Shown here: positions 1,974 to 31,504 of the stretch, one piece after another
Layout of the letters: each line of letters opens with the position of its first letter
How positions within the stretch are numbered: position 1 is the first letter of the stretch
DNA from: a virus
DNA: 49,222 bases
Reading direction: 5' to 3' (one strand)
IMG/VR virus record: IMGVR_UViG_3300031553_000005
Span: 1 to 49,222 of that record
The notes under the pieces: generated by a model
The model's database searches: none
The model's input: the letters and a program-made list of their open reading frames with translations, nothing else
Told to the model about the DNA's origin: nothing
Program-made: the position numbers and the translations under genes

Positions 1974-3083
1974 TCATAAGCCCTTGCGAGGGCGCGAGAT
2001 ACGGGGACGGGGGCGCTTCGCCCCTGTTTTCGTTGAGGGGGTTTCCGCAAGAATTCCGCAAACCTCGGGACCGTCCAACTCGAAGTGGATCCGCTCGGCC
2101 TCGCGCGCCAGGTGGGGATCCGAGGGGTCGAAATAGTGCCGGCGGATCACCTCCGGAGTGGCTCCGACCAGGTGGGCGAGGGTAGAGACCGGCACGCCCG
2201 ACTCCAGTGCCCGGGTGATGTAGGTGGCTCGGAAGGCATGGATCGTGCCCGAGATCCCCAGCCGGTCAAGGTGCCGGCGGAAGTGGCGGTAGACCACGTT
2301 GCGGTCGGCGAACGGGGCGATCCCGCCGAAGAAGTAGGGGGCGTCTGTGCTCTGGCCGAGGACCCGCTGGAGGGCGATTGTGATCGGGATGGAGCGGGTC
2401 CGGCCCCCCTTGGCCTGGCGGATCTCCAGGTGGTCGCCCTGGACGTGATCGCGGCGGATTGCCAGTGTCTCGCTCAGCCGCGCCCCGGAGTGGAGCAGGA
2501 ACAGCCAGAGCATCCTGTGGCGGCGGTCTCCTCCCACATGAGCGAAGATGCGCTGCAGTTCCTCGTCAGTGTAGGCCCGGCGGCGCCCCTTCCGGGCTCC
2601 CTGCCGGGGCTTGACTGCCGCGGCCGGGTTGTGGGTGAGGGTCCCCATCTCCACCGCCCACTGCAATGCCCGCCGGATGTGCCGCCGATGGACGTCCACG
2701 GTAGCCGGCGCCAGGCCCGATGAGGCCAGCTCTGCCAGGTGCCGTTCAATGTGCTGCCGGTTGATCCGGTCCAGGGTGGCCACCCCGCACGATGAGAAGA
2801 AGCGGGGCAGGACCTGCTGGTCGATCTCCACCGTGGAGGGATGCTTTTCGGCAGCCCGGACTGCCAAGTAGTCCTTCAGAAACCGCCCGAAGGGCAGCGC
2901 CTCGCTCCGTCCGGTCTGATGACGGGCGATCCGCTCCTCCTGGCGGCTGAGCTCGCGTTCGGCCTGCCGGCGCTCCCGGGTGCCGGTGCTGTAGCGGTGC
3001 ATTCTCCCGTCCAGGCTCAGGCTGGCAGGGATGTAGATGTACCAGTAGCCGTTACGCTCGAGGAAGAGGTGGAGGGCGTCCAT
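1974..3083 (-). CDS. int: Tyrosine recombinase / phage integrase
   Basis: SAM-like N-terminal domain, then catalytic residues in order: HSGARLSE (Arg), HAFRATYI (His-x-x-Arg), LVGATPEVIRRHY (His/Tyr). Abuts the tRNA-like attP core. Confidence 0.9.
   Translation of the reverse strand: MDALHLFLERNGYWYIYIPASLSLDGRMHRYSTGTRERRQAERELSRQEERIARHQTGRSEALPFGRFLKDYLAVRAAEKHPSTVEIDQQVLPRFFSSCGVATLDRINRQHIERHLAELASSGLAPATVDVHRRHIRRALQWAVEMGTLTHNPAAAVKPRQGARKGRRRAYTDEELQRIFAHVGGDRRHRMLWLFLLHSGARLSETLAIRRDHVQGDHLEIRQAKGGRTRSIPITIALQRVLGQSTDAPYFFGGIAPFADRNVVYRHFRRHLDRLGISGTIHAFRATYITRALESGVPVSTLAHLVGATPEVIRRHYFDPSDPHLAREAERIHFELDGPEVCGILAETPSTKTGAKRPRPRISRPRKGL
2044..2061 (+). repeat. Two TCCGCAA boxes 11 bp apart (putative P' arm-type sites, inside the 3' end of int)
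   Basis: tTTCCGCAAgaaTTCCGCAAacc; same orientation and spacing as the 1779/1790 pair. Confidence 0.45.
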
Positions 3084-3089
3084 TGATGA

Positions 3090-3335
3090 CTATTCTGATT
3101 CGTGCGGCCCAGCTATCTCCTTCAGGTATCTCAGCGCCTCGCCCATGCCACTGAATAAGGCCCAGATTGTGAGACCCCATAGAAAGGCCCCTCCGGCCAT
3201 AATCCAGTGAAGGTCTGTGATCACTTCCCCGGCGGAGATGACGATCAGAAAGGCGGCGGCGATCCCCGCCATGAGCTGGAAGAATCCTATGCCCTGAAGA
3301 ACGGGCGCAACGCTGGCCTGCTTCTTGGCTTTCAT
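3090..3335 (-). CDS. Small membrane protein (2-3 TM), moron
   Basis: 81 aa; hydrophobic segments GIGFFQLMAGIAAAFLIVISA and GGAFLWGLTIWALFSGM; lower-GC DNA; co-oriented 18 nt downstream of the beta-barrel gene. Confidence 0.6.
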   Translation of the reverse strand: MKAKKQASVAPVLQGIGFFQLMAGIAAAFLIVISAGEVITDLHWIMAGGAFLWGLTIWALFSGMGEALRYLKEIAGPHESE

Positions 3336-3352
3336 CGTGGATTCCCTTCGGT

Positions 3353-3949
3353 TCAGTGTGGCCTCTTCGGCTTGCTGCAGAATCCAGCACTTATCCAGAT
3401 GGTATCTGAGTAGACATCAGCAGATATTCCCAGACCCGATAGCCTCGCGTTGAGTCGATTGATTCGTAATCCAAATCCGAGGGGTGGCGCCATGATAAGT
3501 ATGCCCGCACCGTAGCCGATACCGCCCTCTACGTTGATGCCAGCCTTGGGATCAAAGGTCCACGATGAATAGTTGAGGTTGGCATGGATAGTAAGCCAAG
3601 TCTCTGAATTCTGAAATGTCGTGACGTATGCCGGTCCTACCCAGATAACGCCGTGTTGCAGTGACACATCATATCCAGTGATGGGTCGGTAAACACTGAA
3701 GTCATATCCCATGATTAATCCTCGATCGATCCACCAGAAGACAGTCTGAGTGGAAAAGGACAGCTCGGCGCTCATGTCGAAATCCACGCCCGTCTTCTGC
3801 GACGACATACCACCCATGACTGGGCCCGCGCACAAGGTCCACGCGGAAAGGGCACCCTGGGTGGTATCGGGCTGATTCTGGGCGCAGGCGCGAGGGGTAG
3901 TGAGGGGTGAGACGAAGACTAGAAAAGCCGTCAGGATGACACTCTTCAA
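3353..3949 (-). CDS. Secreted outer-membrane beta-barrel-like protein (OmpX/Ail/Lom-type size), moron
   Basis: TTG start preceded by GGAGGAG. Signal peptide MKSVILTAFLVFVSPLTTPRACA|Q (AxA site). The mature part (~175 aa) has alternating aromatic/hydrophobic strands (YDFSVY, VIWVGPAYV, WLTIHANLNY, GYGAGILI, IWISAGF). One hand-counted 60-nt line was 48% GC. Confidence 0.5.
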   Translation of the reverse strand: MKSVILTAFLVFVSPLTTPRACAQNQPDTTQGALSAWTLCAGPVMGGMSSQKTGVDFDMSAELSFSTQTVFWWIDRGLIMGYDFSVYRPITGYDVSLQHGVIWVGPAYVTTFQNSETWLTIHANLNYSSWTFDPKAGINVEGGIGYGAGILIMAPPLGFGLRINRLNARLSGLGISADVYSDTIWISAGFCSKPKRPH

Positions 3950-15351: not shown

Positions 15352-15708
15352 ATGGCCAAGGAGAAGGCGCCGGCATTCCAGGTCTACCCCCGAGAGTTCG
15401 AGGGCGACGAGAACGTCAAGGCGATGACCCTGGAGGAGTTCGGGGCCTACCACCGGCTCCTGTATGTCAGCTGGTTCGAGGTGGGGATACCGGACGACCT
15501 GGATCTACTCGCCCGCATCCTCCATGTCACGCCGGCCAAGATGAAGAAGCTCTGGGTCCGCCTCGCCCCATGCTGGAAGTCGAACAGCCAAGGGAGGCTC
15601 GTCAATAAGCGGCAGGAGCGGGAGCGGGACAAGCAGCGAAGGTATCGGGAACACCAATCCAAGGCCGGAAAGAAGGGGGCCGCAAGTCTCCATGACAAAC
15701 GAAGATAG
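15352..15708 (+). CDS. DUF1376 (YdaU-like) replication-associated protein
   Basis: FQVYPREFEGDENVKAMTLEEFGAYHRLLYVSWFEVGIPDD matches the DUF1376 N-terminal pattern as I recall it. Confidence 0.6.
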   Translation: MAKEKAPAFQVYPREFEGDENVKAMTLEEFGAYHRLLYVSWFEVGIPDDLDLLARILHVTPAKMKKLWVRLAPCWKSNSQGRLVNKRQERERDKQRRYREHQSKAGKKGAASLHDKRR

Positions 15709-16174
15709 CAGACACCGCCAGGAGGTGGACAGGGCGGCGCCATGTCCGGAGGCTGGCTTTCCTGTTTCCGGTTTCCATACTCCAGTAGGAACTACAACTA
15801 CTCTCCGCGATGCGGAGCGGAAACAGACTCGATCCTTCCGTGACTGGTGCGCCTGGGTGCAGGAGAAGACCGACTCCCGTCAGGTCTGGAACGGGCGCTA
15901 CCGAGACACCTGGAACCACTACCTCGAGACCTTCGGCTTGGAAGTGATGGTGGGCCTGCTCATGGAGCGGGACTTCGAGCTGGTGGAGTATGCGATCAAG
16001 GCCCTGCAGGCGGTCGAGCGGCACCCAAAGTCAGCTTACATCCAGACGGTCTGTCGGGAGCGATACCTGGCGGCACAGAAGGCGGAAGACACGGCGGCCA
16101 TGACGGAGGTGATCGACGAGGCGGTGGACTTCAACGGGCTGGCGGCGCAGCTGGCCGGAGAATGGTCGGTATGA
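15692..16174 (+). CDS. Hypothetical protein (start uncertain; N-terminal about 50 codons coincide with iteron-like repeats)
   Basis: The C-terminal two thirds look protein-like (WNHYLETFGLEVMVGLLMERDFELVEYAIKALQAVE); stop overlaps the next ATG. Confidence 0.45.
   Translation: MTNEDSRHRQEVDRAAPCPEAGFPVSGFHTPVGTTTTLRDAERKQTRSFRDWCAWVQEKTDSRQVWNGRYRDTWNHYLETFGLEVMVGLLMERDFELVEYAIKALQAVERHPKSAYIQTVCRERYLAAQKAEDTAAMTEVIDEAVDFNGLAAQLAGEWSV
15758..15825. repeat. Iteron-like repeats and inverted repeats (candidate replication origin)
   Basis: TTTCC at 15758, 15765 and 15772 (7-bp phase); TGTTTCCG (15763) inverted with CGGAAACA (15818); AACTAC x2; CTCCGCgatGCGGAG hairpin at 15803..15817. Confidence 0.3.
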
Positions 16175-16626
16175 GCCGCAGGAAGACAAGGCCCGTCCCC
16201 AATTCTGAAGACTATGCCGAGAAGCTCAAGAATCCTAGATGGCAGAAGAAGAGACTTCAGATACTTGAGCGAGACGGGTGGATGTGCCAGCGATGCCTCG
16301 ACACGGAGACAACACTTCACGTGCACCACAGAACATATGTCAGCGGCCGGGAGCCATGGGATGTGCCGGACGAGCTCTTGGTGACTCTCTGTGAGGGCTG
16401 TCACAAGGAGGAAACCGAAAGGCGAAAGGCCTACGAGAAGCAGCTTCTTGAGGCACTACGGTACCACTTCTTCTTCGACGATATAGAAGAACTCGCCGTG
16501 GCGTTCGCGGACATGAAAAGCGATCACCGGGGCAGCACCATCTCTTCTGCGTTGAGCCACGTGATCAGCGATGAATCGAGCCTGGCAATTCTTGTCGAGG
16601 CATACATGGACCACATTGGAGCATGA
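16171..16626 (+). CDS. HNH endonuclease (small YajD-like type)
   Basis: RWQKKRLQILERDGWMCQRCLDTETTLHVHHRTY...LVTLCEGCH. Confidence 0.8.
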   Translation: MSRRKTRPVPNSEDYAEKLKNPRWQKKRLQILERDGWMCQRCLDTETTLHVHHRTYVSGREPWDVPDELLVTLCEGCHKEETERRKAYEKQLLEALRYHFFFDDIEELAVAFADMKSDHRGSTISSALSHVISDESSLAILVEAYMDHIGA

Positions 16627-16636
16627 GGGGGCCGCA

Positions 16637-16840
16637 ATGAGGTGTCGATGCCAGCGCTACGAGGGCCGGATCCGGGTGGTCGCGGCCGATGGGACCGAGC
16701 GGATGGTCTGCTGGTCCTGCTACTTCCGCGAAGGCTGGAACGTGGAGAAGGAGCCTCTCGTCCAGCGCCGGACGGTCCCGACCCGGCAGGTGCCGGGCAA
16801 GATGGTGGGCTCTGAGATCATCGCGCAGGGGGCACGATGA
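16637..16840 (+). CDS. Small Cys-containing protein
   Basis: GAGGGGG upstream; MRCRCQRYEG...MVCWSCYF; stop overlaps the XRE gene start. Confidence 0.45.
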   Translation: MRCRCQRYEGRIRVVAADGTERMVCWSCYFREGWNVEKEPLVQRRTVPTRQVPGKMVGSEIIAQGAR

Positions 16841-17271
16841 GCGCGGCCCCTACCTTCGCCGAGCGCTTGGCGTCCGCCCGGGAGCGCCAGGGCTTGAACC
16901 GTAACGAGTTGGCCGATCGGCTCGGGACTACCTATGCGAATATCTACTCCTACGAGAGCGGGAAGAGCCAGCCCAGTGTCGACCGTCTGGCGGTGCTCTG
17001 CCGGGCGCTGGAGATCTCGGCCGACGAGCTGCTGGGGATCGAGAAGCGGGAGGATCCGCCCGAGCTGAGTGGGGAACGGCACGTCAGCCGGCCCATCGAG
17101 CGGGATCTGCCCAACCGGCTTCTGGCCTGGAGACGGGCGGCCGGGGAGGTCCGGGCCCGCCTCGAGGATCCTGCCCAGCTCAAGCTGATCGCCGCCGCCG
17201 ACGAGGCCCTGGACGCCCTGCTGTGCCGGCTGCTGCCCGAGGTGATCCGGCTGGGGGCGGGGAAGTCCTGA
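16837..17271 (+). CDS. XRE-family HTH regulator
   Basis: FAERLASARERQGLNRNELADRLGTTYANIYSYESGKSQPSVDRLAVLCRALEISADELLG. Confidence 0.8.
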   Translation: MSAAPTFAERLASARERQGLNRNELADRLGTTYANIYSYESGKSQPSVDRLAVLCRALEISADELLGIEKREDPPELSGERHVSRPIERDLPNRLLAWRRAAGEVRARLEDPAQLKLIAAADEALDALLCRLLPEVIRLGAGKS

Positions 17272-17519
17272 TGTGCCGTTGGGGGACAAGCAGGATGGTC
17301 CGGCTCTGCCAGCCGAAGGAGGTCAGCGGCCGGACCGAGGTACCGGTGGACGCCTGTATCGCCCCCCTGGTGCAGATGCTCAATGACTTCGGTGTGCACA
17401 CCACCGGGGCCTGCTGCGGACACAGCAAGGCCCCGGGGTGGATCTCCTATGAGCAGGACGGTGAACAACGAGAGATGAGGATCCAGACGAACTGCCAGGA
17501 GACGCCAGCCCATGCCTGA
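17271..17519 (+). CDS. Cys-rich protein with ACCGH motif
   Basis: TGATG overlap; VDACIAPLVQMLNDFGVHTTGACCGHSKAPGWI. Confidence 0.5.
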   Translation: MCRWGTSRMVRLCQPKEVSGRTEVPVDACIAPLVQMLNDFGVHTTGACCGHSKAPGWISYEQDGEQREMRIQTNCQETPAHA

Positions 17520-17910
17520 GCTGTCCGTCCTGCCCGCCTGGCGCTCCCAGGCCTACCGCGACTTCCTGCGCGACCACATCACCTGGTGCCAGCGGTGCGG
17601 AGCTGCAGGACCCACCGAGGAGGCACACGGTCCTCGGCGCCGGCCGTGGATAGGGATGGTCCACGGCACGTTCAGTCCCGGCCGGGAAAAGGCGTCGGAC
17701 TTCTCCATCCTCCGGGAGTGCCACGCCTGCAACATGCTGGAGAGCGACGATCCCCGCGGTGCCTGGCCGGACCCCCGAGAGCGGGACCGGATCGCGCTGC
17801 AGAATCTGATCGCCTATGTCGCCCACCTGGACCCGGGCATCAACCTCGAGGCGGAGATCCTGGAGTGGGTGCAGGAGAGGGTGGCCGAAATGGAGACCGA
17901 ACATGGCTGA
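17512..17910 (+). CDS. DUF968-like zinc/HNH-fold protein
   Basis: WRSQAYRDFLRDHITWCQRCG...EEAH...KASDFSILRECHACN. Confidence 0.4.
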   Translation: MPELSVLPAWRSQAYRDFLRDHITWCQRCGAAGPTEEAHGPRRRPWIGMVHGTFSPGREKASDFSILRECHACNMLESDDPRGAWPDPRERDRIALQNLIAYVAHLDPGINLEAEILEWVQERVAEMETEHG

Positions 17911-19956: not shown

Positions 19957-20134
19957 GTTGTTGCAATCGTGCCACAACCGGCACTTTCCCACTGACAATT
20001 GCCATACCTCTGCCGCATGATGGAATAGAAGGGTTGATCGTCGACTCCGGAGGGGGACATCGGCGGTGATCACTTCTCCCGGGGCCTAAACTCCCCCCAG
20101 GGTTCCTCCCCGGGGACATAGTAGTCGGACCGAG

Positions 20135-20175
20135 CCCCCCGTTGTCACGTGACGGCAGCGGGGGGTTGTCTATTT
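20135..20175 (+). terminator. Terminator-like nested hairpin followed by T-rich tract
   Basis: CCCCCCG tt GTCACGTGAC ggcag CGGGGGG ttgtctattt; 7-bp GC stem enclosing a 10-bp palindrome. Confidence 0.45.
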
Positions 20176-20185
20176 GGAGGATGCT

Positions 20186-21368
20186 GTGGCGGCAAAGCTC
20201 AACATCGAGATGGTCGCTCCCCGGGATCTGAATCCCGCTGCATATAATCCCAGAAAAATCAGTGAGGAAGCCCTTCGGCGCCTGCGCCGCGGGATCCGCG
20301 AGTTCGGAATGGTGGACCCCATCGTGGCGAGGCGTAAGGGCAAGGTCGTCATTGGTGGCCACCAGCGGCTACGAGCTGCCATCGAGGAGGGGATAACCGA
20401 GGTACCCGTGGTGTTCCTATCAGGCCTGAGCGAAGAGAAGGCCAAGGCGCTGAACGTCCTGCTGAACAACCCGGGCGCCCAGGGCGAGTGGGACACCGGG
20501 AAACTTGAGGAGTTGCTTTCCGAGCTGGACGCCGACGGATTCGACATAACACTGACCGGATTCGATGACGACGAACTCGCCAAGATGCTCAACCGTGGAG
20601 ACGGGAGTGAGGACGAGTTCGACCCCGAGCCCCCCACGAAGCCGAAGTCGAAGCGCGGCGAGGTGTACGAACTCGGACCGCACCGCCTGATGTACGGGGA
20701 TGCGACGAGCGCGGAGGACGTGGGGATTCTTCTGGCCGGGGTGGAACCCCACCTCATGGTCACCGATCCGCCATACGGGGTGGGATACTCTCCGGAGTGG
20801 CGAGCCCAGGCCGGTGTCAACCGCAACAAGAAGAAGCTGGGGAACATCACCAACGACAACCGTGCCGACTGGCGTGAGGCCTGGGCACTCTTCCCTGGCT
20901 CAGTCGCCTATGTGTGGCACGAAGCCCTCCATGCACCAGTAGTGCTGGAGAGCCTCATCGCGGTCGGATTCCAGGTGCGAAGCCAGATTATCTGGGTCAA
21001 GGACCGGTTCGCTCTTAGCCGAGGCCACTATCATTGGCAGCACGAGCCCTGCTGGTATGTGGTCAGGGGGGGGGGGGCACTGGACCGGAGGACGCGGGCA
21101 GTCGACGGTGTGGCACATCCCGGCACGAGAGGACTCCGGCCATGGGCATGGAGCCCAGAAGCCGGTCGAGGCCATGCGGCGCCCGATGCTTAACAATTCC
21201 TCCCCGGGGCAGGCTGTATACGACCCCTTCGTCGGTTCCGGCACAACCATCATCGCAGCCGAGCAGACAGGAAGGGTCTGCTATGCGATGGAGATCGACC
21301 CGGGTTACTGCGATGTGGTGCGGAGACGCTATGCCGAGTTCACGGGCAGGCAGGAGCTCATGCCGTGA
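20186..21368 (+). pseudogene. ParB-like N-terminal domain fused to N6A/N4C DNA methyltransferase; frame broken at a G12 tract
   Basis: GTG at 20186, 5 nt after GGAGG. ParB-like VIGGHQRLRAAIEEG. Motif IV LMVTDPPYGV in frame 2. After GGGGGGGGGGGG the family sequence continues in frame 0 (GQSTVWHIP...HGAQKPVEAM...VYDPFVGSGTTIIAAEQTGRVCYAMEIDPGY). Confidence 0.8.
21066..21077 (+). repeat. Homopolymeric G12 tract
   Basis: Counted directly: ggtca + 12 g + cac. G11 or G14 would fuse the two methyltransferase halves. Confidence 0.95.
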
Positions 21369-21946
21369 GCACGGCGAAGAAGTCGAAGAAGAAGGCTGCC
21401 GCCAAGAAGAAGGCTCCAGCGAAGAAGAAAGCGCCAGCACGGAAGAAGAAGAACAAGACCGCGACCAAGAAAAAGACGGCCACGAGGAAGAAGAAGGCTC
21501 CGGCTAAAAAGAAGGTCGTGAAGAAGTCCTCAGCCAAGAAGGCGACCGCGAAGAAGAAGGCTCCGGCTAAAAAGAAGACCGCCGCCAAGAAAAGCAAGGG
21601 TGGACGGCCGCCGCTCAAACTCGATAAGCGGCAGATCGAGACCCTAGCCAAGATCAACTGCACCCATGAAGAGATAGCTGCCGTCATGGGCTGCTCGACC
21701 GACACAATCGCTCGCCGTTATGCGGAGCTAATAAACAAGGCTCGACTGGACGGAAGAAGCAGTCTGCGCCGTGCCCAGTGGGCGAAGGCGCTTGGCGGCA
21801 ATCCCACGATGTTGATTTGGCTAGGCAAGCAGGAGCTGGGGCAGAGAGACCGCCTCGAGCACGAGCACTCCGGGCCCGATGGAGGACCCATCCCGGGGCA
21901 GATCAACGTTCGACTGGTCAAGTCTGATGAGCCTGGCGACGGTTGA
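21365..21946 (+). CDS. terS: Terminase small subunit with about 78-aa Lys/Ala-rich histone-H1-like N-terminal extension
   Basis: KKAPAKKK-type repeats, then GGRPPLKLDKRQIETLAKINCTHEEIAAVMGCSTDTIARRY...GGNPTMLIWLGKQELGQRD (TerS HTH pattern); immediately upstream of terL. Confidence 0.7.
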   Translation: MSTAKKSKKKAAAKKKAPAKKKAPARKKKNKTATKKKTATRKKKAPAKKKVVKKSSAKKATAKKKAPAKKKTAAKKSKGGRPPLKLDKRQIETLAKINCTHEEIAAVMGCSTDTIARRYAELINKARLDGRSSLRRAQWAKALGGNPTMLIWLGKQELGQRDRLEHEHSGPDGGPIPGQINVRLVKSDEPGDG

Positions 21947-23132
21947 GGTCGAACTCCCGGAGGCCCTGAGCTTCCTGCTCGACCCCCCCCTGGGGAGTGT
22001 CCGCTACCGGGTGGCCTACGGAGGGCGGGGGAGTGCTAAGTCCTGGAACTATGCCCGGGCGCTCCTGCTCCACGGCACCCAGACACCCCTAAGAATCCTC
22101 TGCGCCCGGGAATACCAGGTCTCCATCCAGGATAGTGTCCACCAGCTACTATCCGACCAGGTGAGCGCAATGAGCCTGGACGGATTCTATGCGGTGCAGA
22201 AGAACGCTATCACCGGCATGAACGGCACCGACTTCCTCTTCAAGGGACTCCGAAGGAACATCCGGGAGATCAAGTCGACCGAGGGCATCGACATCTGCTG
22301 GGTGGAGGAGGCCGAGGCCGTCAGTGACCAGTCCTGGCGGATCCTGATCCCCACGGTCCGTAAGCCCGGCTCGGAGATCTGGGTGTCGTTCAACCCCGCC
22401 CTGGCATCTGATCCCACCTATCGCCGCTTCGTTCAGGATCCCCCCTCCCGTAGCATCGTCCGGTTTGTGTCCTGGAAGGACAACCCCTGGTTGCCGGAGG
22501 TGCTCCAGAACGAGGCCGAGGAGCTCCGCCGGAAAGATCCCGAGGCCCATGCCCACGTCTGGGGGGGCGAGCCCTGGCAGCGCTCTGACGCCCAGGTGCT
22601 GGCCGGCAAGTGGACGGTCGAGGACTTTGAGCCCCTGGAGAGCTGGGACGGTCCCTACTTCGGTGGCGATTGGGGCTTCGCCCTGGACCCCACCGTCCTC
22701 GTGAAGGTCTGGATCGCGGACTCTCGGCTCTACCTCGAGTACGACAACGGCGCCCCCCAGATGACCCTGGATGATATCGAACGAGAGTGGCGCAAGGTCC
22801 CGGATGCCGGCAAGTACGTGATCCGGGCGGACAGCGCGAGGCCGGAGACGATCAACGAGATGGCCTCCCGCGGCTGGCGTATCGAGGGCGTGAAGAAGTG
22901 GCCGGGATCCGTCGAGGACGGGATCGAACACCTCCGTAGCTATGAGAAGATCGTCATCCACCCGCGGTGCCGGCGGGCCCGGGAGGAGGCCCGGCTCTGG
23001 AGCTACAAGACCGACCCCCGCACCGACGACGTGCTGCCCAAGCTCAAGGACGGCTTCGAGCACGTCTGGGATGCCGTCCGCTATGCCCTGGCACCGATCA
23101 TCATGAAGGGCACGAACTTCATGTTCCGATGA
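21927..23132 (+). CDS. terL: Terminase large subunit (PBSX/Terminase_3-like)
   Basis: Walker A YGGRGSAKS, Walker B-like ICWVEEAE, nuclease half GGDWGF...IRADSARPE...VWDAVRYA. Alternative upstream start at 21879. Confidence 0.85.
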   Translation: MSLATVEVELPEALSFLLDPPLGSVRYRVAYGGRGSAKSWNYARALLLHGTQTPLRILCAREYQVSIQDSVHQLLSDQVSAMSLDGFYAVQKNAITGMNGTDFLFKGLRRNIREIKSTEGIDICWVEEAEAVSDQSWRILIPTVRKPGSEIWVSFNPALASDPTYRRFVQDPPSRSIVRFVSWKDNPWLPEVLQNEAEELRRKDPEAHAHVWGGEPWQRSDAQVLAGKWTVEDFEPLESWDGPYFGGDWGFALDPTVLVKVWIADSRLYLEYDNGAPQMTLDDIEREWRKVPDAGKYVIRADSARPETINEMASRGWRIEGVKKWPGSVEDGIEHLRSYEKIVIHPRCRRAREEARLWSYKTDPRTDDVLPKLKDGFEHVWDAVRYALAPIIMKGTNFMFR

Positions 23133-23755
23133 CGATCGCCTGCGTACTCCGAAGCGGTGGCGATTTCGACCGCCGGTGGGTAGAAGCCCTGAGAGTTGGC
23201 ATGGAGCTGCATGCCCCCGTGCATCGGTTCATCTGTCTCACCGACACCTCTTCAGAGCCCGACGACATCCCGCTCGAGCATGATTGGCCGAAGTGGTGGT
23301 CGAAGATGGAGCTCTTCCGCCCTGGGCTCTTCAGTGGACCTGTGCTGTACGTGGACCTGGACACGCTACCGGTGGGGGACCTCTCGCAGATTGCCGGCTA
23401 CCGCGGTCCGCTGGCGATGCTCAGCGACTTCTACAAACCGAGCAGGGCGCAGAGCGGGGTGATGGCCTTCACGCCGGGCCCGGTTACCGAGGGCCTATGG
23501 GAGATGTGGATCGCCAATACCGCGATGCAGATACACCGCTACCGCGGGGATGGGGAGTGGCTGCACGCCCACTGCGGTCCCGATCGGCTGCAGGAGCTCT
23601 TCCCGGGCCAGATCGTGAGTCTGAAAACACACTGCAAGCCACCGAAAGCGAAAGGGCCGCCGAAGGGGGCGAGACTGGTGTGTCTGCATGGTAGGCCGCG
23701 TCCCAACAGCCCAAAGGCAGGCTGGGCATACGACCTGTGGAAGGAGCGAGCATGA
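23129..23755 (+). CDS. Glycosyltransferase, GT-A fold-like (DxD)
   Basis: ATGA overlap with terL stop; WWSKMELFRPGLFSGPVLYVDLDTLPVGDL...SGVMAF...GDGEWL. Confidence 0.6.
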   Translation: MTIACVLRSGGDFDRRWVEALRVGMELHAPVHRFICLTDTSSEPDDIPLEHDWPKWWSKMELFRPGLFSGPVLYVDLDTLPVGDLSQIAGYRGPLAMLSDFYKPSRAQSGVMAFTPGPVTEGLWEMWIANTAMQIHRYRGDGEWLHAHCGPDRLQELFPGQIVSLKTHCKPPKAKGPPKGARLVCLHGRPRPNSPKAGWAYDLWKERA

Positions 23756-24456
23756 TCGCCTGGTGGTCACAGTCTCCCAAGCCGGGCAACCTGGGGGATG
23801 TACTCACTCCAATCATCCTCCAGGGAATGGGAGTGGATGTGAAGTGGGCACCCCGCAGAAAAGCCCGTCTGCTGGCCATCGGGAGCATCATACGCTTCGC
23901 AGTCCCCGGACAGTATGTGTGGGGCTCGGGAGCTATGTGGTCACACGATGTTCCGAGCCCCCGGGCTCGTTACCTGGCGGTGCGAGGACCCTTGACCCGG
24001 GCGGTGGTGCAACGTGCCGGCGGGGAATGTCCGCAAGTCTACGGGGATCCGGCGTTGCTACTTCCCCGGATCCACAATGGAGCGGTGGAGCAGCAGCACG
24101 ACGTTGCGATCGTGCCGCATTACGTGGATGAGAGGGGCGTGCGGGCCCGGTATCCGGGCTGGCACATCATAAGTTCGCTGCGGGCCAATCCCCTCCAGGT
24201 GGTGGATGAGATCCGCTCCTGTAAGGCCATTCTATCCTCTTCCCTGCACGGCATCATCGTCGCTCATGCCTATGGGATCCCCGCGGCCTGGGTCCGCTTC
24301 TCAAACCTGCTGGACGGCGATGACACCAAGTTCCGGGACCATGCTGCCGCGGTGGGAGTGAGTCTGCCGCCCTACAAGAGCCCGGAGAAGGCCGAGCCCG
24401 TACTGGGAACACTGGATACAGGTCCTCTGATGAAGGCACTGGAGGCGATACGGTGA
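23752..24456 (+). CDS. Polysaccharide pyruvyl transferase-like protein
   Basis: PGNLGDVLTPIIL near the N-terminus, AIGSI, and SSSLHGIIVAHAYGIPAAWV near the C-terminus. Confidence 0.6.
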   Translation: MIAWWSQSPKPGNLGDVLTPIILQGMGVDVKWAPRRKARLLAIGSIIRFAVPGQYVWGSGAMWSHDVPSPRARYLAVRGPLTRAVVQRAGGECPQVYGDPALLLPRIHNGAVEQQHDVAIVPHYVDERGVRARYPGWHIISSLRANPLQVVDEIRSCKAILSSSLHGIIVAHAYGIPAAWVRFSNLLDGDDTKFRDHAAAVGVSLPPYKSPEKAEPVLGTLDTGPLMKALEAIR

Positions 24457-25022
24457 ACGTGGTCCTGGTCAGCTTCTACACCCCGACCTGGGAGTATCCG
24501 GCGCACGCTCGGAGGCTAAGAAACGAGTGTGAAGTACTCGGCGTGGACCACCACATCGTTGAGAGAGAGGACGTGAAAGGCTGGCTGGCCAATACCCGTC
24601 AGAAGCCGCTGGTCCTGTTGGAAGCACTGCGCGAACTGAAGCGGCCCATCCTATGGACCGACGTGGACGGGTCCCTCTGCCGTAGGCCGGTAGGGCTGCG
24701 AAAGGACGTTGACTTCATGGCCCGGGCCCGACCGCCCAAGCAGGAACGGGCCTGGCACGTGGACACGCTCTACTTCAACACCACTCCGAGGGCTGAGGAG
24801 CTGTTGGAGCTGTGGATTGAGCATCTCACCGATCACTCCGATGGTCTGGCCCTGCATCAAGCATGGCAGTCCGGACGCTGGGGGGGGCGGTCTGCCCCAC
24901 TGCCTGCGGAGTACTATCCGGGTGCGAAGGCCCCTGTCATCCAGTACCGACGCTCGACGAGTCCGGGGAAGCGGGCCGATCAACGCCGGCTCAAGAGGGA
25001 GGGGCGTTATGCACCACTCTGA
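24453..25022 (+). CDS. Nucleotide-diphospho-sugar transferase-like protein
   Basis: GTGA overlap; VVLVSFYTPTWEY...NTRQKPLVLLEALRELKRPILWTDVDG. Confidence 0.45.
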   Translation: MNVVLVSFYTPTWEYPAHARRLRNECEVLGVDHHIVEREDVKGWLANTRQKPLVLLEALRELKRPILWTDVDGSLCRRPVGLRKDVDFMARARPPKQERAWHVDTLYFNTTPRAEELLELWIEHLTDHSDGLALHQAWQSGRWGGRSAPLPAEYYPGAKAPVIQYRRSTSPGKRADQRRLKREGRYAPL

Positions 25023-25584
25023 GCGCCGGGCCCGGGAGTTGCTCGGACGGCTGGACATCGTGAGCCCCTATGGTGCCGAGATAGGTGTCTGGAAGGGGGA
25101 GATGTCCCGAAACCTGCTCATGCTTAATCCCCTTCTCCGGCTGCTGATGGTCGACAACTGGAAGTCAGCAAGAGAACGGAGCAAGGCATACCGGATATCC
25201 GGGGACTACATCGCACGGGTAAATGTCCAGCGCATGGGACTGGCCAAGAGACAGGCCCATGAATCCACCGAGTTTGCTGCCGGGCGCCGTACAATTCTGT
25301 ATACCGATTCACTGGACGCTGCGGGTCTCGTCCCGAAGGCCTCCCTGGACTTCGTGTTCATCGACGCCGAGCACACCTATGAGGCCGCGACCGCCGACAT
25401 CCAGGCGTGGTTGCCGGCCATCAAACCCGGAGGGCTGCTGAGTGGCCATGACTACAGCCCGCCGGGTGAACTCAGCCCGAAAGGCTGGCCCGGGGTGGTC
25501 AGGGCCGTGGACGAGTTCGTAGAGAGAGGCGGCCTAACCCTCGACCGTGGAGAGCAGGCGACATGGTTCATCCGGCTGCCATAA
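25009..25584 (+). CDS. Class I SAM-dependent methyltransferase (Methyltransf_24 / O-MT family 3-like)
   Basis: GAEIGVWKGEMS...LDFVFIDAEHTYEAATADIQAWLPAIKPGGLLSGHDY...GVVRAVDEF. Confidence 0.65.
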   Translation: MHHSERRARELLGRLDIVSPYGAEIGVWKGEMSRNLLMLNPLLRLLMVDNWKSARERSKAYRISGDYIARVNVQRMGLAKRQAHESTEFAAGRRTILYTDSLDAAGLVPKASLDFVFIDAEHTYEAATADIQAWLPAIKPGGLLSGHDYSPPGELSPKGWPGVVRAVDEFVERGGLTLDRGEQATWFIRLP

Positions 25585-26288
25585 ACACCCGCGACCAGTG
25601 GGCCGAGATCGCGATCGCCGCCTACTCGGCCATGGTCACTGATCGCATGCACTTTGCCCAGGCAGCCTACCGGGACGGGGAGTGGTACTGCATCGGCGGC
25701 AGCAGCGGGAAGACCATCAATGCCGAGGAGTTCAATCCCGAACTGGGGAACCTATTGGCCCGAACCCTACTCGAGCCTGTCGGCCAGTGGTGCGTGCTCT
25801 GGTGGAAGCATCCCAGGATGGGCAGGCAGGCATTCAACATCGCAAAGAAGTGGATCGCTACCCACAAGCCCGATGTGCGTTGGATTCCCGATCGCCCCAT
25901 CAGCCGGGCGAATGAGATCGGCATGGCCGCACCCTTCTGGCAGGCCTGCAGGAGTCGAAGGGTGGTGGCTGTCGGACCTGCACACATGGCCAATCTGGAT
26001 CTGTTCGACATCGCCGAGCATATCATCGTGCCCCCCAGGGTGGCCTGGAAGCACACCAACAGTGTCTGCGAGCAGGTCCTGACCGTCTATCGACCGCATG
26101 ATCTGATTCTCTTTGCCGCCGGCATGGGCTCGAACCTGATGATATGGAAGCTCTGGCCGCAGCTGAGAGGCAAGGCAACGCTGCTGGATATCGGAGCCGC
26201 GCTGGACCCCTACTGTGGCCACTTCAGCCGAGGCATCTTCCGCGAACCCGGATGGCAGGAGAACATCATGCCCAGGAATATCCCGTGA
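25563..26288 (+). CDS. GT-D (DUF1792)-like glycosyltransferase candidate
   Basis: YRDGEWYCIGG (compare the RxGDGE motif) and LFAAGMGSNLMIWKLW...ATLLDIGAALDPY. Confidence 0.4.
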   Translation: MVHPAAINTRDQWAEIAIAAYSAMVTDRMHFAQAAYRDGEWYCIGGSSGKTINAEEFNPELGNLLARTLLEPVGQWCVLWWKHPRMGRQAFNIAKKWIATHKPDVRWIPDRPISRANEIGMAAPFWQACRSRRVVAVGPAHMANLDLFDIAEHIIVPPRVAWKHTNSVCEQVLTVYRPHDLILFAAGMGSNLMIWKLWPQLRGKATLLDIGAALDPYCGHFSRGIFREPGWQENIMPRNIP

Positions 26289-27307
26289 GGCTGCTCATCA
26301 CTGGGCACACGGGCTTCAAGGGCGCCTGGCTGAGCCTTCTGGCCGAACAGGAGGGCCACGAGGTGGGTGGATATGGTCTGTCCCGAACCGCCGGCCCGTC
26401 GTTTTATAAGGTGGCCCGCATCCGAGAGCACCTGGCCTTTGAGAGGCGAGAAGACGTTACGGACATGCTCGCACTCCGACAGGCGGTGGCCGCCTTCCGT
26501 CCTGAGGTTGTCTTTCATCTCGCGGCCCGCGCCATTCTCCTGGAGTCGTTCGGTGCCCCGGTGGGGACCATACGCAACAACGTGATTGGAACAGCCGCGG
26601 TCCTGGAAGCGGTAAGGCACTGCCCGGGTGTTGCTGGAACCGTCATTGTGACCACCGACAAGGTCTACCGCAACGACGGAAGAAGCGATGGATATAAGGA
26701 GACAGATCGACTGGGTGGACTGGATCCTTATGGAGCAAGCAAGGCGGCCGCAGAGCTGGTGGTGGACAGCTATCGACACACCTATGCCCTGAATGTTGCC
26801 ACGGCCCGGAGCGGGAATGTTATCGGAGGGGGCGATTGGGGACCGCGCAGGTTGGTACCCACCTGCTTGGAGGCATTCAGCAGGGGCGAAGAGCCGACCA
26901 TCTATGATGCTGCCCGCCCGTTCCTGCATGTGCTGGATACCCTGCGTGGATACCTGCTGCTGGCTGAGAGGCTATGTGTGGAACCGGAGATCTCCGGGGG
27001 ATACAACTTCGGTCCCGGTCAGGTAACTCCACTGTATGAGGTTGCTGACCATATCGCAGCCCGCATGGGTGGGTTCTACCGGAAGGCGGGCAAACCCCCG
27101 GGCGAAGCATCCATGCTTGCGCTTGATAGCAGCAAGGCCCGAAAGGTCCTCGGGTGGGCGCCACGATGGGGCATCGCCGAGATACTGGATCGGACCGTGG
27201 AGTGGTATCAGGCATGGCGTCTGGGCTCAGACATGGAACTAGTGAGTATCGAGCAGATTGACGCACACCGCAGTGAGTCGGTCCGCGAAGAGGATGTGGT
27301 GGTATGA
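26285..27307 (+). CDS. Extended SDR NDP-sugar 4,6-dehydratase (CDP-glucose 4,6-dehydratase-like)
   Basis: GTGA overlap; LITGHTGFKGAWLSLLL-type N-terminus (ITGHTGFKGAWL), VFHLAA, TTDKVY, YGASKAAAE (YxxxK). Confidence 0.7.
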   Translation: MRLLITGHTGFKGAWLSLLAEQEGHEVGGYGLSRTAGPSFYKVARIREHLAFERREDVTDMLALRQAVAAFRPEVVFHLAARAILLESFGAPVGTIRNNVIGTAAVLEAVRHCPGVAGTVIVTTDKVYRNDGRSDGYKETDRLGGLDPYGASKAAAELVVDSYRHTYALNVATARSGNVIGGGDWGPRRLVPTCLEAFSRGEEPTIYDAARPFLHVLDTLRGYLLLAERLCVEPEISGGYNFGPGQVTPLYEVADHIAARMGGFYRKAGKPPGEASMLALDSSKARKVLGWAPRWGIAEILDRTVEWYQAWRLGSDMELVSIEQIDAHRSESVREEDVVV

Positions 27308-27867
27308 GGGGCATCGTGTTGGGCGGCGCAGCCTGTATCTGGAAGGACGTGGACCGGCTGGAGGCCATGATCGGCCAGCAGTGGAATGAGATCGTGGTGG
27401 CGGCGAACGATATCGGGTGTCATTGGCCGCGGGAGATGCATGGCTGGTGTTCACTCCATCCCGAGAAGATGGACCAGTGGGTGAAAATCCGGGAGCGTAA
27501 GAGGCTGCCCGGAGGATTCATCACCTATGCAAAAGACGGGAGAAAGAGAAGGGGCATCGACGCCACGGTGCGCCACCGATTCGGAAGCGGCTCGTCAGGT
27601 CTACTGGGCGTCTCAGTGGCCCTACATCTTGGATGTACGAAGATCGTGCTGTGCGGAATCCCCATGACCCGGGAGCCCTACTTCGCGGAGTCCGAGGTCC
27701 ACCCTAAGGGTAAGGCATTCTCCTCGGCGGACTCCCACTGGAGAAAGTGGCTGCTGTATGCGGAGAAGATGCAGGGCACCGTTAAGTCGATGAGTGGACG
27801 CACCAGGGACCTACTTGGAGAACCTACACTGGAATGGTTGGGTGAAGACGATGGCAAAGACCCCTGA
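27304..27867 (+). CDS. DUF115/Maf-like (MptE-like fold) putative glycan transferase
   Basis: ATGA overlap; IVLGGAACIW...VVAANDIG...GSGSSGLLGVSVALHLGCTKIVLCGIPM. Confidence 0.35.
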   Translation: MRGIVLGGAACIWKDVDRLEAMIGQQWNEIVVAANDIGCHWPREMHGWCSLHPEKMDQWVKIRERKRLPGGFITYAKDGRKRRGIDATVRHRFGSGSSGLLGVSVALHLGCTKIVLCGIPMTREPYFAESEVHPKGKAFSSADSHWRKWLLYAEKMQGTVKSMSGRTRDLLGEPTLEWLGEDDGKDP

Positions 27868-29347: not shown

Positions 29348-29519
29348 AGACCTGGCCAAGCTCGGACAGAACGCAAAGGCCTTCGCCAAGGCCTATGTGC
29401 AGCTGAAGGAAGAGCTGATCCGTCAGGGGGTTGAGGCTGAGGAGGCGAAGGTGGTCGCTCGCTCGGCGGCCATGATGACCATCTTCAATCCCGACGAGGA
29501 GAAGCCGTGGGACACGTAG
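29337..29519 (+). CDS. Small helical hypothetical protein
   Basis: 60 aa, overlapping portal stop and Mu F-like start. Confidence 0.45.
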   Translation: MKAEDLAKLGQNAKAFAKAYVQLKEELIRQGVEAEEAKVVARSAAMMTIFNPDEEKPWDT

Positions 29520-31504
29520 TCTGTGTTCACCATGCCCACAATAGGGCTGCCGGTCCTTCTTCCCGCACTCACCGTATCGTTCGGCGCATTGCGGACCGCT
29601 ACGGATCCAACATCGCGGACGCCTTCCTGACTGCTCTCTCCCGATTGGATGCGGGCATCGATAAGGTGGAACTGTCAAGTGCGGTCGCCTCAGGGGATGT
29701 CAATGCCATCGTGGCCGCTATCGGCCCGTCGCGGTTGGGGGCGATCTTCGCCGGCGGTGACTCACTTTCGAAGGTCTTGCAGGACACGGCGGCGGCCAGC
29801 GGCGGGTTGGGTATGGATGTTCTGAGCGAGGTCACCGGTATGCAGGCCAGCTTCAATGCCGTGGATCCCAATGTGGTGATGTTCGCCCGCGAGAGGGCTG
29901 CCCGCCTGGTGGTCGATGTGACCGAGGACGTGATCGAGGCTGTGCGTATCGTGATTGCTGCGGGTGCTGCTGAGGGGCTGACCACCGTGCAGCAAGCGCG
30001 AGCAATCCGGGAGGTTGTGGGCCTGCCGCCCAACTGGGCCGAGGCTCCCTCACGGCTTGCCTCCGAGCTTCGTGCGGGGCGATTCACCTCCAGCCGACGC
30101 CTTTCAGCAATCGACAAAGCCCGTATCCGCAAGAGACTGAAAGAGGGGACGATCACCGAGGACTTCATCTCCGAGATACAGGCGAATTACGCCCGCAGCC
30201 TGACCAATCGCAGAGCACTCAACATCGCCCGCACCGAGAGCGCTACCTCGGCCAATCATGGTATGCGTACCGGCTGGAGACAGGCACGAGATCAGGGTGT
30301 GCTGTCCGAGGACGTGAAGCGCATCGTGGTAGTCACCCACGACGAGGAGTTGAGGGAGACACATGCCGCCGTCCCGTTCATGAATCAGGGGGGCGTAGGC
30401 CTGGATGAACCCTTCGAAACCCCCTGGGGGCCTCTCATGGGCCCGCCCTGGGATCCCGACCCTTACAACTGCCTACTGCCCGGCACTCCCGTAAGGGGTC
30501 GGTTCGTGGCTGGGGTTCGTGCCCACTATCGCGGCGAAGTAATCACCATCCATACTGCCGGGGGGCGCAAGCTCGCCGTCACCTCGAATCACCCAGTACT
30601 CACCCGCGACGGCTTCGTTGCGGCCCAGCGTGTGCGCGATGGACACCAGCTTCTCTGCTACAGCGGGGACGCGCATGGGGCAACCGCGCCGGGGGCGCAC
30701 GAACACGGGGCGCCAGCCGCTGTTGACGATGTGTTCCATGCGCTCGGCAAGCTTTGGGGCCAGGAGCTCCGAGACCTTTCTGTTGAAGATCTCCACGGCG
30801 ACGCGGCAGGCACTGATGGTAAGGTCGATGTTGTACGGCCCGACAGGGTATTGCTGGTCGACGGGCTCGCCCAACCTCTCGATGGCGGCGGCAATAGCAT
30901 TCTCGTACTTACCACGCCGCCCACCATTTCGGTAGCGAGTGAGGGCTCGGGCGGCCATGGCCTCGGAGCTGTCCACGCGACCGCGCGCAGCGGCGTGGGC
31001 GGGGCCGAGCTGCCTGCGAACGGCTTCAGGGTCCGCCTTGAGTTGTTGCCATTTCAGCTTCTCGGCTTCGGAGCGCCCCCGGAGTTGTATCCCGGCGCGT
31101 TTGAGTCGATGGGCAATCACGCTACGGTCGTGCCCGGTTCTCTCGCTGATCGCCTTGACCGATTCGCCCGAGAGATAGGCGGCGCTGATGCCGGGCACGT
31201 CGATCTTCTTCCAAAGGTGGTGCTTCCGCCCAACGGAGGACTTCATCGGCCGGGCCGGCAGCCTCCATTCGATACGCCTCTGTCTCACGGTGGCAGTACT
31301 GACTCCAAGCTCGCTCGCGACCTCTTGGAGCGTCATGCTGGATTGGTAGAGCTGGACGAAGTGGTCGCGGTCGATGTCAGCTCGTGGCATGGGCATGTGT
31401 ACGACCTCCAGTCGGTTACGGGCTTTAATATCGCATCTGATGTCTTTGTTAGCAACTGCCGCTGTGGTGAAGGGCTGATCTTCCCTGGGGGCGGGGTGCT
31501 GTGA
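29507..31504 (+). CDS. Mu F / SPP1 gp7-like minor head protein interrupted by an intein
   Basis: Phage_Mu_F-like NRRALNIARTESATSANHG...; the N-extein ends PWDPDPYN and the C-extein resumes CRCGEGLIF, recreating the family NCRC motif. Confidence 0.8.
   Translation: MGHVVCVHHAHNRAAGPSSRTHRIVRRIADRYGSNIADAFLTALSRLDAGIDKVELSSAVASGDVNAIVAAIGPSRLGAIFAGGDSLSKVLQDTAAASGGLGMDVLSEVTGMQASFNAVDPNVVMFARERAARLVVDVTEDVIEAVRIVIAAGAAEGLTTVQQARAIREVVGLPPNWAEAPSRLASELRAGRFTSSRRLSAIDKARIRKRLKEGTITEDFISEIQANYARSLTNRRALNIARTESATSANHGMRTGWRQARDQGVLSEDVKRIVVVTHDEELRETHAAVPFMNQGGVGLDEPFETPWGPLMGPPWDPDPYNCLLPGTPVRGRFVAGVRAHYRGEVITIHTAGGRKLAVTSNHPVLTRDGFVAAQRVRDGHQLLCYSGDAHGATAPGAHEHGAPAAVDDVFHALGKLWGQELRDLSVEDLHGDAAGTDGKVDVVRPDRVLLVDGLAQPLDGGGNSILVLTTPPTISVASEGSGGHGLGAVHATARSGVGGAELPANGFRVRLELLPFQLLGFGAPPELYPGAFESMGNHATVVPGSLADRLDRFAREIGGADAGHVDLLPKVVLPPNGGLHRPGRQPPFDTPLSHGGSTDSKLARDLLERHAGLVELDEVVAVDVSSWHGHVYDLQSVTGFNIASDVFVSNCRCGEGLIFPGGGVL
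30470..31456 (+). mobile_element. Intein (329 codons) in the Mu F-like gene
   Basis: Begins CLLPGTPVRG (block A), contains VTSNHPVLT (block B TxxH), and ends HGHVYDLQSVTGFNIASDVFVSN followed by +1 Cys. Confidence 0.75.
30473..31396 (-). CDS. Antisense-encoded homing-endonuclease candidate: two HTH segments plus Vsr/DUF559-like PD-(D/E)xK nuclease
   Basis: ATG at 31396 preceded by GGAGG (8-nt spacer). High GC3 on this strand. HTH-like segments LQEVASELGVSTATVRQRR and VKAISERTGHDRSVIAHRLKRAG. Nuclease-like YENAIAAAIERLGEPVDQQYPVGPYNIDL...VAVEIFNRK...GWRPVFVR. Confidence 0.65.
   Translation of the reverse strand: MPMPRADIDRDHFVQLYQSSMTLQEVASELGVSTATVRQRRIEWRLPARPMKSSVGRKHHLWKKIDVPGISAAYLSGESVKAISERTGHDRSVIAHRLKRAGIQLRGRSEAEKLKWQQLKADPEAVRRQLGPAHAAARGRVDSSEAMAARALTRYRNGGRRGKYENAIAAAIERLGEPVDQQYPVGPYNIDLTISACRVAVEIFNRKVSELLAPKLAERMEHIVNSGWRPVFVRPRRGCPMRVPAVAEKLVSIAHTLGRNEAVAGEYWVIRGDGELAPPGSMDGDYFAAIVGTNPSHEPTPYGSAGQ

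Follow-up and report, generated by a model that had tools for sequence, protein, structure and literature searches.

We analysed the genome of an uncultured virus, IMG/VR record IMGVR_UViG_3300031553_000005, over its whole length of 49,222 nucleotides (positions 1 to 49,222 of the record; hereafter the window), and describe a gene for a predicted DNA methyltransferase that is fused to a ParB-like domain and is split between two reading frames at a run of twelve guanines (G12). The gene is carried on the plus strand and is followed directly by terS, which codes for the small terminase subunit. The features that make up the split gene are as follows (window coordinates; ORF, open reading frame; aa, amino acids).

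20176-20181, plus strand: ribosome-binding site GGAGGA, preceding the GTG at 20186.
20186-21193, plus strand: frame-2 ORF as read with G12, from the GTG at 20186; 335 aa comprising a ParB_N domain, a linker, the N-terminal half of a methyltransferase with the motif DPPY, and 38 out-of-frame codons that end at TAA (21191-21193).
21066-21077, plus strand: G12 homopolymer in the context ...TGGTATGTGGTCA-G12-CACTGGACC..., read as AGG GGG GGG GGG (R294-G297) and then one surplus G; a slip-prone tract in a loop-coding segment.
21078-21368, plus strand: frame-0 continuation, HWTGGRGQSTVW...QKPVEAM..., with motif I DPFVGSGTT, ending at TGA (21366-21368).
21186-21193, plus strand: overlap site ATGCTTAA, where the TAA that closes the truncated frame-2 ORF shares bases with a frame-0 ATG (the Met of a conserved RPML).

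The tract consists of exactly twelve G between the flanks ...GGTCA and CACTGG..., so that its length and position agree with the initial annotation of this DNA. Before the tract, frame 2 reads ...HEPCWYVVRGGG, and frame 0 (21057-21368) reads ...GGGGHWTGGRGQSTVWHIP...QKPVEAM...DPFVGSGTT; the division of a ParB-methyltransferase between these two frames, which the initial annotation had described, was verified in both. The same annotation had proposed that the loss of one G or the gain of two would restore a protein of about 395 aa whose stop overlaps the start of terS. Both points held, since the reconstructions are 393 aa (G11) and 394 aa (G14) long and the start of terS (GTG, 21365-21367) runs into the TGA at 21366-21368 (GTGA). 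More generally, tracts of 8, 11 or 14 G encode the full enzyme, tracts of 9, 12 or 15 G lead to the stop at 21191, and tracts of 10 or 13 G read through to 21505, with a tail of 143 codons. Changes in repeat number decide whether the gene, intact in other respects, is in frame, as in a phase-variable locus, and the repeat is a slip-prone simple sequence inside an ORF, as in a contingency locus.

The two halves of the gene belong to well-defined families. ParB_N (PF02195) matched residues 7-91 (nucleotides 20204-20458) with E = 5.8e-10, above the curated cut-off, and N6_N4_Mtase (PF01555) matched residues 189-378 of the G11 reconstruction in a single unbroken match across the junction. With G12, as sequenced, the halves lie in separate frames; the 335-aa product matches ParB_N only, and the 103-aa frame-0 remainder matches only positions 139-219 of the PF01555 profile, that is, its last third, which includes motif I. 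Motif IV (DPPY, 20765-20776) lies N-terminal to the AdoMet-binding motif I (DPFVGSGTT, 21222-21248), and the tract falls between them, where the initial annotation had placed it. Motif IV before motif I is the order found in the beta class, and DPPY is typical of N6-adenine enzymes. Among proteins of known structure, the C-terminal part is related to beta-class methyltransferases, CcrM, DpnA and M.RsrI among them, and the N-terminal part to Spo0J, ParB and Noc. From its domains and motifs, the gene is predicted to encode a ParB-fused beta-class (DPPY...FxGxG) N6-adenine DNA methyltransferase. Gene callers give a 335-aa 'ParB' and a 60-aa fragment instead, which conceals the methyltransferase.

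Fusions of a ParB domain to a methyltransferase are very common; thousands of homologues are 50-60% identical, those of Aurantimonas phage AmM-1 and of many Streptococcus and Gordonia phages among them. The database search returned no homologue between 100% and 60% identity, the best distinct protein relative being 60% identical. All of the 80 viral homologues at 50-59% identity are intact single ORFs, and none (0/80) has more than five identical bases at the site of the tract; likewise, the best 120 database homologues are all single ORFs and none has the tract. When the G11 reconstruction was compared with 29 homologues no gap was found at the junction, and its loop RGGGHW is identical in two of them, P0007 and P0014. 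Across the family, the tract loop differs in length by 2-5 residues and also in composition, and in an AlphaFold (AF2) model (mean pLDDT 77) the residues encoded by the tract form an irregular loop between the strands 286-293 and 308-311. Because the loop is variable in the family and modelled as a loop, the gain or loss of whole glycine codons (changes of 3n bases) should be tolerated.

The segment downstream of the tract is 66-71% identical to its homologues, as compared with 68% for the segment upstream. It retains every family-invariant residue, its 96 codons are open, and it holds no second lesion; thus, in this comparison, the post-tract segment shows no sign of decay. That it is as conserved as the pre-tract segment suggests that the break is either recent or not inactivating.

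The tract itself stands out in the genome. No other homopolymer in the window is as long, the next being one G8 and one C8, and the counts of G/C runs by length (21 of 6 bases, 4 of 7, 2 of 8 and 1 of 12) drop about 4-fold with each added base. A model of independent bases expects 0.12 G/C runs of at least 12 per window; this model over-predicts the shorter runs about 3-fold, and runs counted in real DNA make a better null. Related phages and prophages, 1.48 Mb in all, contain only five G/C runs that reach 9 bases and none that reaches 12. Among the 80 homologous methyltransferase genes (93 kb), the longest run was at most 5 in 75, and the maximum was a single G8. The choice of codons is also unusual. 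Given the codon usage of the phage (GGG is 27-30% of Gly codons and AGG 13% of Arg codons), RGGG would be encoded as AGG GGG GGG GGG with a probability of 0.0025, and three GGG codons are used in none of the 12 other GGG tripeptides among the ORFs of this phage. The next longest runs, shorter but also slip-prone, both lie within ORFs: the C8 (21983-21990) in the 5' part of terL, the gene for the large terminase subunit, and the G8 (24880-24887) in the polysaccharide-modifying block. A methyltransferase-family relative (L019, 5012-5022) likewise has a long G/C run in its packaging module, a C11 that is in frame (PPPP) at the 3' end of a terS-like ORF just before terL.

The identical 335-aa product, which needs exactly G12, is called on three further contigs: a 46.8-kb contig of JGI 3300031864, a 23.2-kb Logan contig of SRR9707467 and a 13.6-kb Logan contig of SRR9700529. 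Each matches the window at 100% identity along 4.8-13.4 kb, and none breaks at the tract. Together with the window they make four assemblies, from two pipelines and at least two sequencing runs. They are consensus sequences, evidently of one clonal population, in which minority variants would be invisible. The four are collinear and identical, and a chimeric misassembly was ruled out.

The initial annotation had suggested comparing the length of the tract in related contigs. The contigs of the same phage all have G12, and no close relative carries the tract. The closest phage as judged by the large terminase subunit TerL (84% aa identity) is L083 (IMGVR_UViG_3300017989_000323), in which the ParB-methyltransferase gene (2246-3541) is intact. 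The L083 protein is similar to that of the present phage in the ParB part and over the last ~45 residues, whereas the catalytic core differs (SPPY, not DPPY, and a different middle); this looks like the exchange of a specificity module between related phages. Genome contigs searched for nearer relatives yielded distant prophages only. On these comparisons, the tract is private to this lineage and lies in a gene whose specificity module appears to turn over fast.

The reading that we favour, and to which we give an even chance of being correct, is that this is a slipped-strand, contingency-type locus, currently OFF, for methylation of the progeny phage DNA. Slipped-strand mispairing is frequent in G/C homopolymers as long as this one, and for this reason the G12 tract is expected to shed and gain Gs in replication. 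The break would consist of one surplus G in a tract that is lengthened and shortened by replication slippage and, because the surplus G sits in a fast-slipping tract, would be both recent and reversible. With G12 (OFF), the ParB domain and the N-terminal half of the enzyme would be made up to the stop at 21191, and motif I would be missing; with G11 (or with 14 or 8 G; ON), the normal single-chain enzyme of the family would be produced. The OFF allele would be dominant in the sampled population and ON genomes would form a minority. Such an arrangement could pay off as bet-hedging, in that methylated virions would evade classical restriction-modification and unmethylated virions would evade methylation-dependent (Type IV-like) restriction. 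The truncated product of the OFF state, which would still contain the ParB domain, is worth attention because ParB-like proteins activate other phage DNA-modifying enzymes (PMC13229309). Metagenome pipelines also call a gene of 60 aa at the ATG at 21186, a possible point of reinitiation that would yield a fragment with motif I in the OFF state.

A phase-variable switch was what the initial annotation had proposed. It stands as the most plausible mechanism and has a precedent in the same Pfam family, the bpm gene of Bordetella phages discussed below; the length polymorphism that defines such a switch was not found, and this and several other observations weigh against our reading. No variation in the length of the tract was detected among the four assemblies, all of them G12, although consensus sequences of one clonal population make this a weak test. 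An exact look-up of the products expected from G9, G10, G11, G13, G14 and G15 found none in ~15 billion proteins, and the ON form of this phage was not observed in any assembly or protein record searched. The exact flanks with a tract of 6-20 bases between them gave no match in IMG/VR or in the metagenome contig collection, which as searched did not include this phage. With no relative above 60% identity and none of the 80 viral homologues carrying more than five identical bases at the site, there is no evidence of selection maintaining the tract; the codon choice hints at selection, and the hint is suggestive but modest once the picking of the site and multiple testing are allowed for. Switching, recoding and plain recent death of the gene are not separable from the present consensus sequences.

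Gene death, which we consider unlikely, would have come about by a +1 slip in a chance G11 run of codons that killed a dispensable methyltransferase, the broken allele then being swept or drifting to fixation with no adaptive switching. The broken form is the only one found in the four assemblies and the tract is unique to the lineage, as this explanation would have it. Moreover, L083 has exchanged the whole catalytic core, which indicates that the gene turns over quickly, and terS has its own ribosome-binding site, which would make packaging independent of the frame of the methyltransferase. Against it, the 96 codons downstream are undecayed, with no second lesion, and a run of 12 G reverts at a high rate, so that permanent death is physically unlikely without further mutations. 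A recent pseudogene and the contingency locus that we favour would differ mainly in adaptive meaning and not in mechanism.

It is distinctly less probable that the surplus G is an artefact of sequencing or of the consensus. The true tract would then be G11 and the gene intact, one G having been added by a homopolymer miscall or by slippage in the library polymerase chain reaction (PCR). Long runs of G are recognised error sites, G11 gives the exact architecture of the family, and the downstream part is undecayed. However, the same length was obtained from two pipelines, in at least two runs and on four contigs, none of which is broken at the tract. The first and last 127 bp of the window are a direct terminal overlap, which points to a short-read de Bruijn assembly, in which the path of the majority k-mers wins. 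Short-read data rarely give a majority of +1 at a 12-mer and PCR slippage favours deletions, both of which count against an artefact. The other long runs of the window, the G8 and the C8, are both within ORFs and so give no sign of a general homopolymer error. A simple consensus error, which the initial annotation had named as a finding that would overturn its proposal, is weakened by these results.

We hold it to be highly improbable that G12 is fixed and that the full-length enzyme is made by programmed recoding from a fraction of transcripts or ribosomes, either through a +1 ribosomal shift or through loss of one G by the RNA polymerase. In a still slightly less probable version, a fixed and functional G12 would have two roles in a programmed +1 frameshift, as its slippery sequence and as an internal Shine-Dalgarno-like stimulator, and the frameshift would set the ratio of truncated ParB protein to full ParB-methyltransferase. 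The predicted trans-frame peptide is VVRGGGHWTGGR. The invariance of G12 in all assemblies and the full conservation of the downstream frame would suit recoding, and the tRNA-Gly in the P site could re-pair perfectly from GGG to GGG in the +1 frame. AGGGGG, the 5' part of the run, lies 3 nucleotides upstream of the last GGG codon; this arrangement of AGGGGG, a 3-nucleotide spacer and a shift codon mimics the layout of prfB, where an internal Shine-Dalgarno sequence is spaced in the same way. The next (A-site) codon, GCA, is rare (10% of Ala codons), though it is a sense codon, and the A site thus offers neither a stop nor a clearly hungry codon. No significant RNA structure was found downstream (z = +1.2), the fold around and after the tract being no more stable than those of shuffled sequences. 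The 80 viral relatives and the best 120 database homologues are all single ORFs, with no conservation of the shift site or of a split gene. The initial annotation had also considered translation by a +1 shift; such a shift is conceivable, but no relative shares the site. Slippage of the RNA polymerase is unlikely, since the run is of G and is not an A/T run of about 9 or more; in a transcriptome-wide study, which did not assay a 12-base G run, every slippage insertion lay in an A/T run, and its authors judged runs of G/C not to be slip-prone (PMC5574713). Frameshifting by -1 was ruled out, as frame 1 leads into the 143-codon tail without methyltransferase motifs.

Most improbable of all is an enzyme of two polypeptides, in which the 335-aa N-terminal fragment would assemble with a C-terminal one (103 aa from the ATG at 21057, or 60 aa by reinitiation at 21186): naturally split methyltransferases exist, the break would fall in a surface loop of the modelled structure, one frame-0 ATG (21057) is upstream of the tract while the second overlaps the TAA of the first ORF, and the 103-aa fragment covers PF01555 positions 139-219 including motif I, but there is no Shine-Dalgarno sequence before 21057 and a weak one before 21186, the 60-aa fragment is without a conserved strand and the QKPVE segment, and no relative is organised in this way among the 80 viral loci and the best 120 database homologues.

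Removal of the 127-bp direct terminal overlap gives a circular assembly and a genome of 49,095 bp. Its genes code for an integrase, a CI-like repressor, and SbcC-like and HNH proteins; the others include the methyltransferase gene, terS, terL, the polysaccharide-modifying block, and genes for the portal, head morphogenesis, an HK97-type capsid and the tail. From the circular overlap, together with the integrase, repressor, packaging, head and tail genes, we conclude that the window is the complete genome of a temperate tailed phage, 49.1 kb long and high in G+C. The methyltransferase gene has small phage ORFs on its upstream side and terS and terL on its downstream side, and no res or hsd gene is found among these neighbours. 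The features around it are the following.

19992-20021, plus strand: weak match to a sigma-70-like promoter (9/12 in a consensus scan in which ~0.5 such matches are expected by chance; not taken as evidence of function).
20133-20167, plus strand: terminator-like G+C hairpin of 14 pairs, 9 of them G-C, with C6/G6 arms and a T-rich tail, directly before the ribosome-binding site of the methyltransferase gene.
21365-21946, plus strand: terS, small terminase subunit (PHROG 309, E = 1.9e-13), with a GTG start and its own AGGAG at 21352-21356.
21927-23132, plus strand: terL, large terminase subunit, with Pfam matches to Terminase_3 and Terminase_3C; used as the query for related phages.

A non-coding leader of 225 bp (19960-20185) precedes the late operon and holds both the promoter-like match and the hairpin. 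The hairpin probably marks the boundary of the late operon and would be its point of antitermination. Within this leader the two Logan contigs of the same phage break off, at window positions 19993 and 20117; their ends suggest that the DNA there is repeated or variable, or that the molecule has a physical end at this place. We read the methyltransferase gene as the first gene of the late/packaging operon, so that the enzyme would act on DNA that is about to be packaged. Translation of terS does not depend strictly on coupling to the gene upstream, since an AGGAG of its own precedes the start codon by eight bases.

Several other properties of the genome may be recorded. The N-terminal extension of TerS, of ~85 aa (window 21374-21620), consists of Lys/Ala/Pro-rich repeats (KKKAPAKKK...) of histone-H1/AlgP-like low complexity. 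The polysaccharide-modifying block (23201-27867), which codes for a glycosyltransferase (phrog_1962), a polysaccharide pyruvyl transferase, a Methyltransf_24 protein and an NAD-dependent epimerase, lies between terL and the portal gene, an unusual place for a moron island. The 665-aa head-morphogenesis protein (29507-31504; phrog_3517 / phrog_15127) has a weak, sub-threshold Pfam match to intein splicing in its C-terminal half. The JGI contig Ga0315538_1000141, of 46,779 bp, ends at window position 17748; judging from the coordinates, and if it is collinear with the window, it may be without ~2.3 kb (~15432-17747, with an HNH gene and a helix-turn-helix gene), which would mark a region variable in the population. 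An Rfam scan of the whole window found no RNA element.

The present evidence is a single, unvarying frameshift, seen in one state in one clonal population. If ON and OFF genomes coexist, the locus would be an environmental example of a temperate phage that hedges its own epigenetic state, and a locus of this kind would bear on the prediction of phage host range and of escape from restriction.

Loci of this kind are already known in other phages, and the present one is not new in kind. In its architecture and position the gene matches the ParB-methyltransferase fusions (PF02195 and PF01555) found beside prophage terminase genes, but the homologues examined are uninterrupted, with a homopolymer of at most 5 at the site, whereas here the gene is broken at G12. 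The closest parallel in mechanism is bpm of the Bordetella phages BPP-1, BIP-1, BMP-1 and vB_BbrP_003, which, like the gene described here, is an orphan adenine methyltransferase gene of temperate phages, belongs to PF01555, has the order DPPY...FxGxG and, between motifs IV and I, contains a poly-G tract within its coding sequence. We read the lengths of the bpm tracts directly from the GenBank records and found, between otherwise identical flanks, G8 in BPP-1 and vB_BbrP_003 (in frame), G9 in BIP-1 and G10 in BMP-1. The poly-G tract in the methylase gene of BPP-1 has been cited as an earlier sighting (bioRxiv 10.1101/2025.10.21.683753). The two loci differ in that the bpm tract lies 5 residues before motif I and the present one ~50 residues before it, in another loop; bpm has no ParB domain, whereas ParB_N is fused here; bpm is in the early region, beside cro and a primase gene, and the present gene is at the head of the late operon; and variation in length is documented for the 8-10 G of bpm, whereas none is documented for the 12 G described here.

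In phage T2, homopolymers in agt were shown experimentally to be contingency loci, through which DNA glucosylation is switched between escape from TgvAB and escape from McrA/BC (Gomez, Barrick and Waters, bioRxiv 10.1101/2025.10.21.683753). As in T2, the homopolymer described here lies in a phage DNA-modification gene, and the reversible frameshifts in agt hedge against defences that target modified or unmodified DNA. The T2 runs, however, are of 6-9 A in a glucosyltransferase gene of a lytic coliphage in which switching and fitness were measured, whereas the present tract is G12 in an uncultured temperate phage known from sequence alone. As cited in the same work, the receptor-binding genes of Campylobacter Fletchervirus phages have hypermutable tracts of 7-11 G within ORFs that give rise to phenotypic subpopulations (Sorensen et al. 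2021, Cell Rep 35:109214, cited in bioRxiv 10.1101/2025.10.21.683753). Those tracts affect host recognition, in a host lineage known for poly-G phase variation, whereas the gene described here concerns DNA modification. At G12, the tract exceeds the documented lengths of phage poly-G tracts (7-11 G, and 8-10 G in bpm).

In bacterial phasevarions, a term that the initial annotation had invoked, methylation is likewise toggled by slipped-strand mispairing, at a repeat that lies in the ORF of a beta-class methyltransferase (PMC12707154). The label does not fit here. Phasevarions are parts of host chromosomal restriction-modification systems (Type III mod, Type I) that reprogram host expression, whereas the present gene belongs to a phage late operon and would act on DNA to be packaged. 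A phasevarion would have an adjacent res or hsdR/hsdS gene in a Type III or Type I system of the host. The present gene lacks any such partner and is not a host regulator but a late gene of a phage; we therefore do not count the locus among phasevarions, and describe its product as an orphan, late-operon phage enzyme, unlike that of a host Type III mod gene with a regulon. If ON and OFF genomes coexist, the locus would extend the cases of T-even agt and Bordetella bpm to a very common gene, the ParB-methyltransferase gene that precedes the terminase genes.

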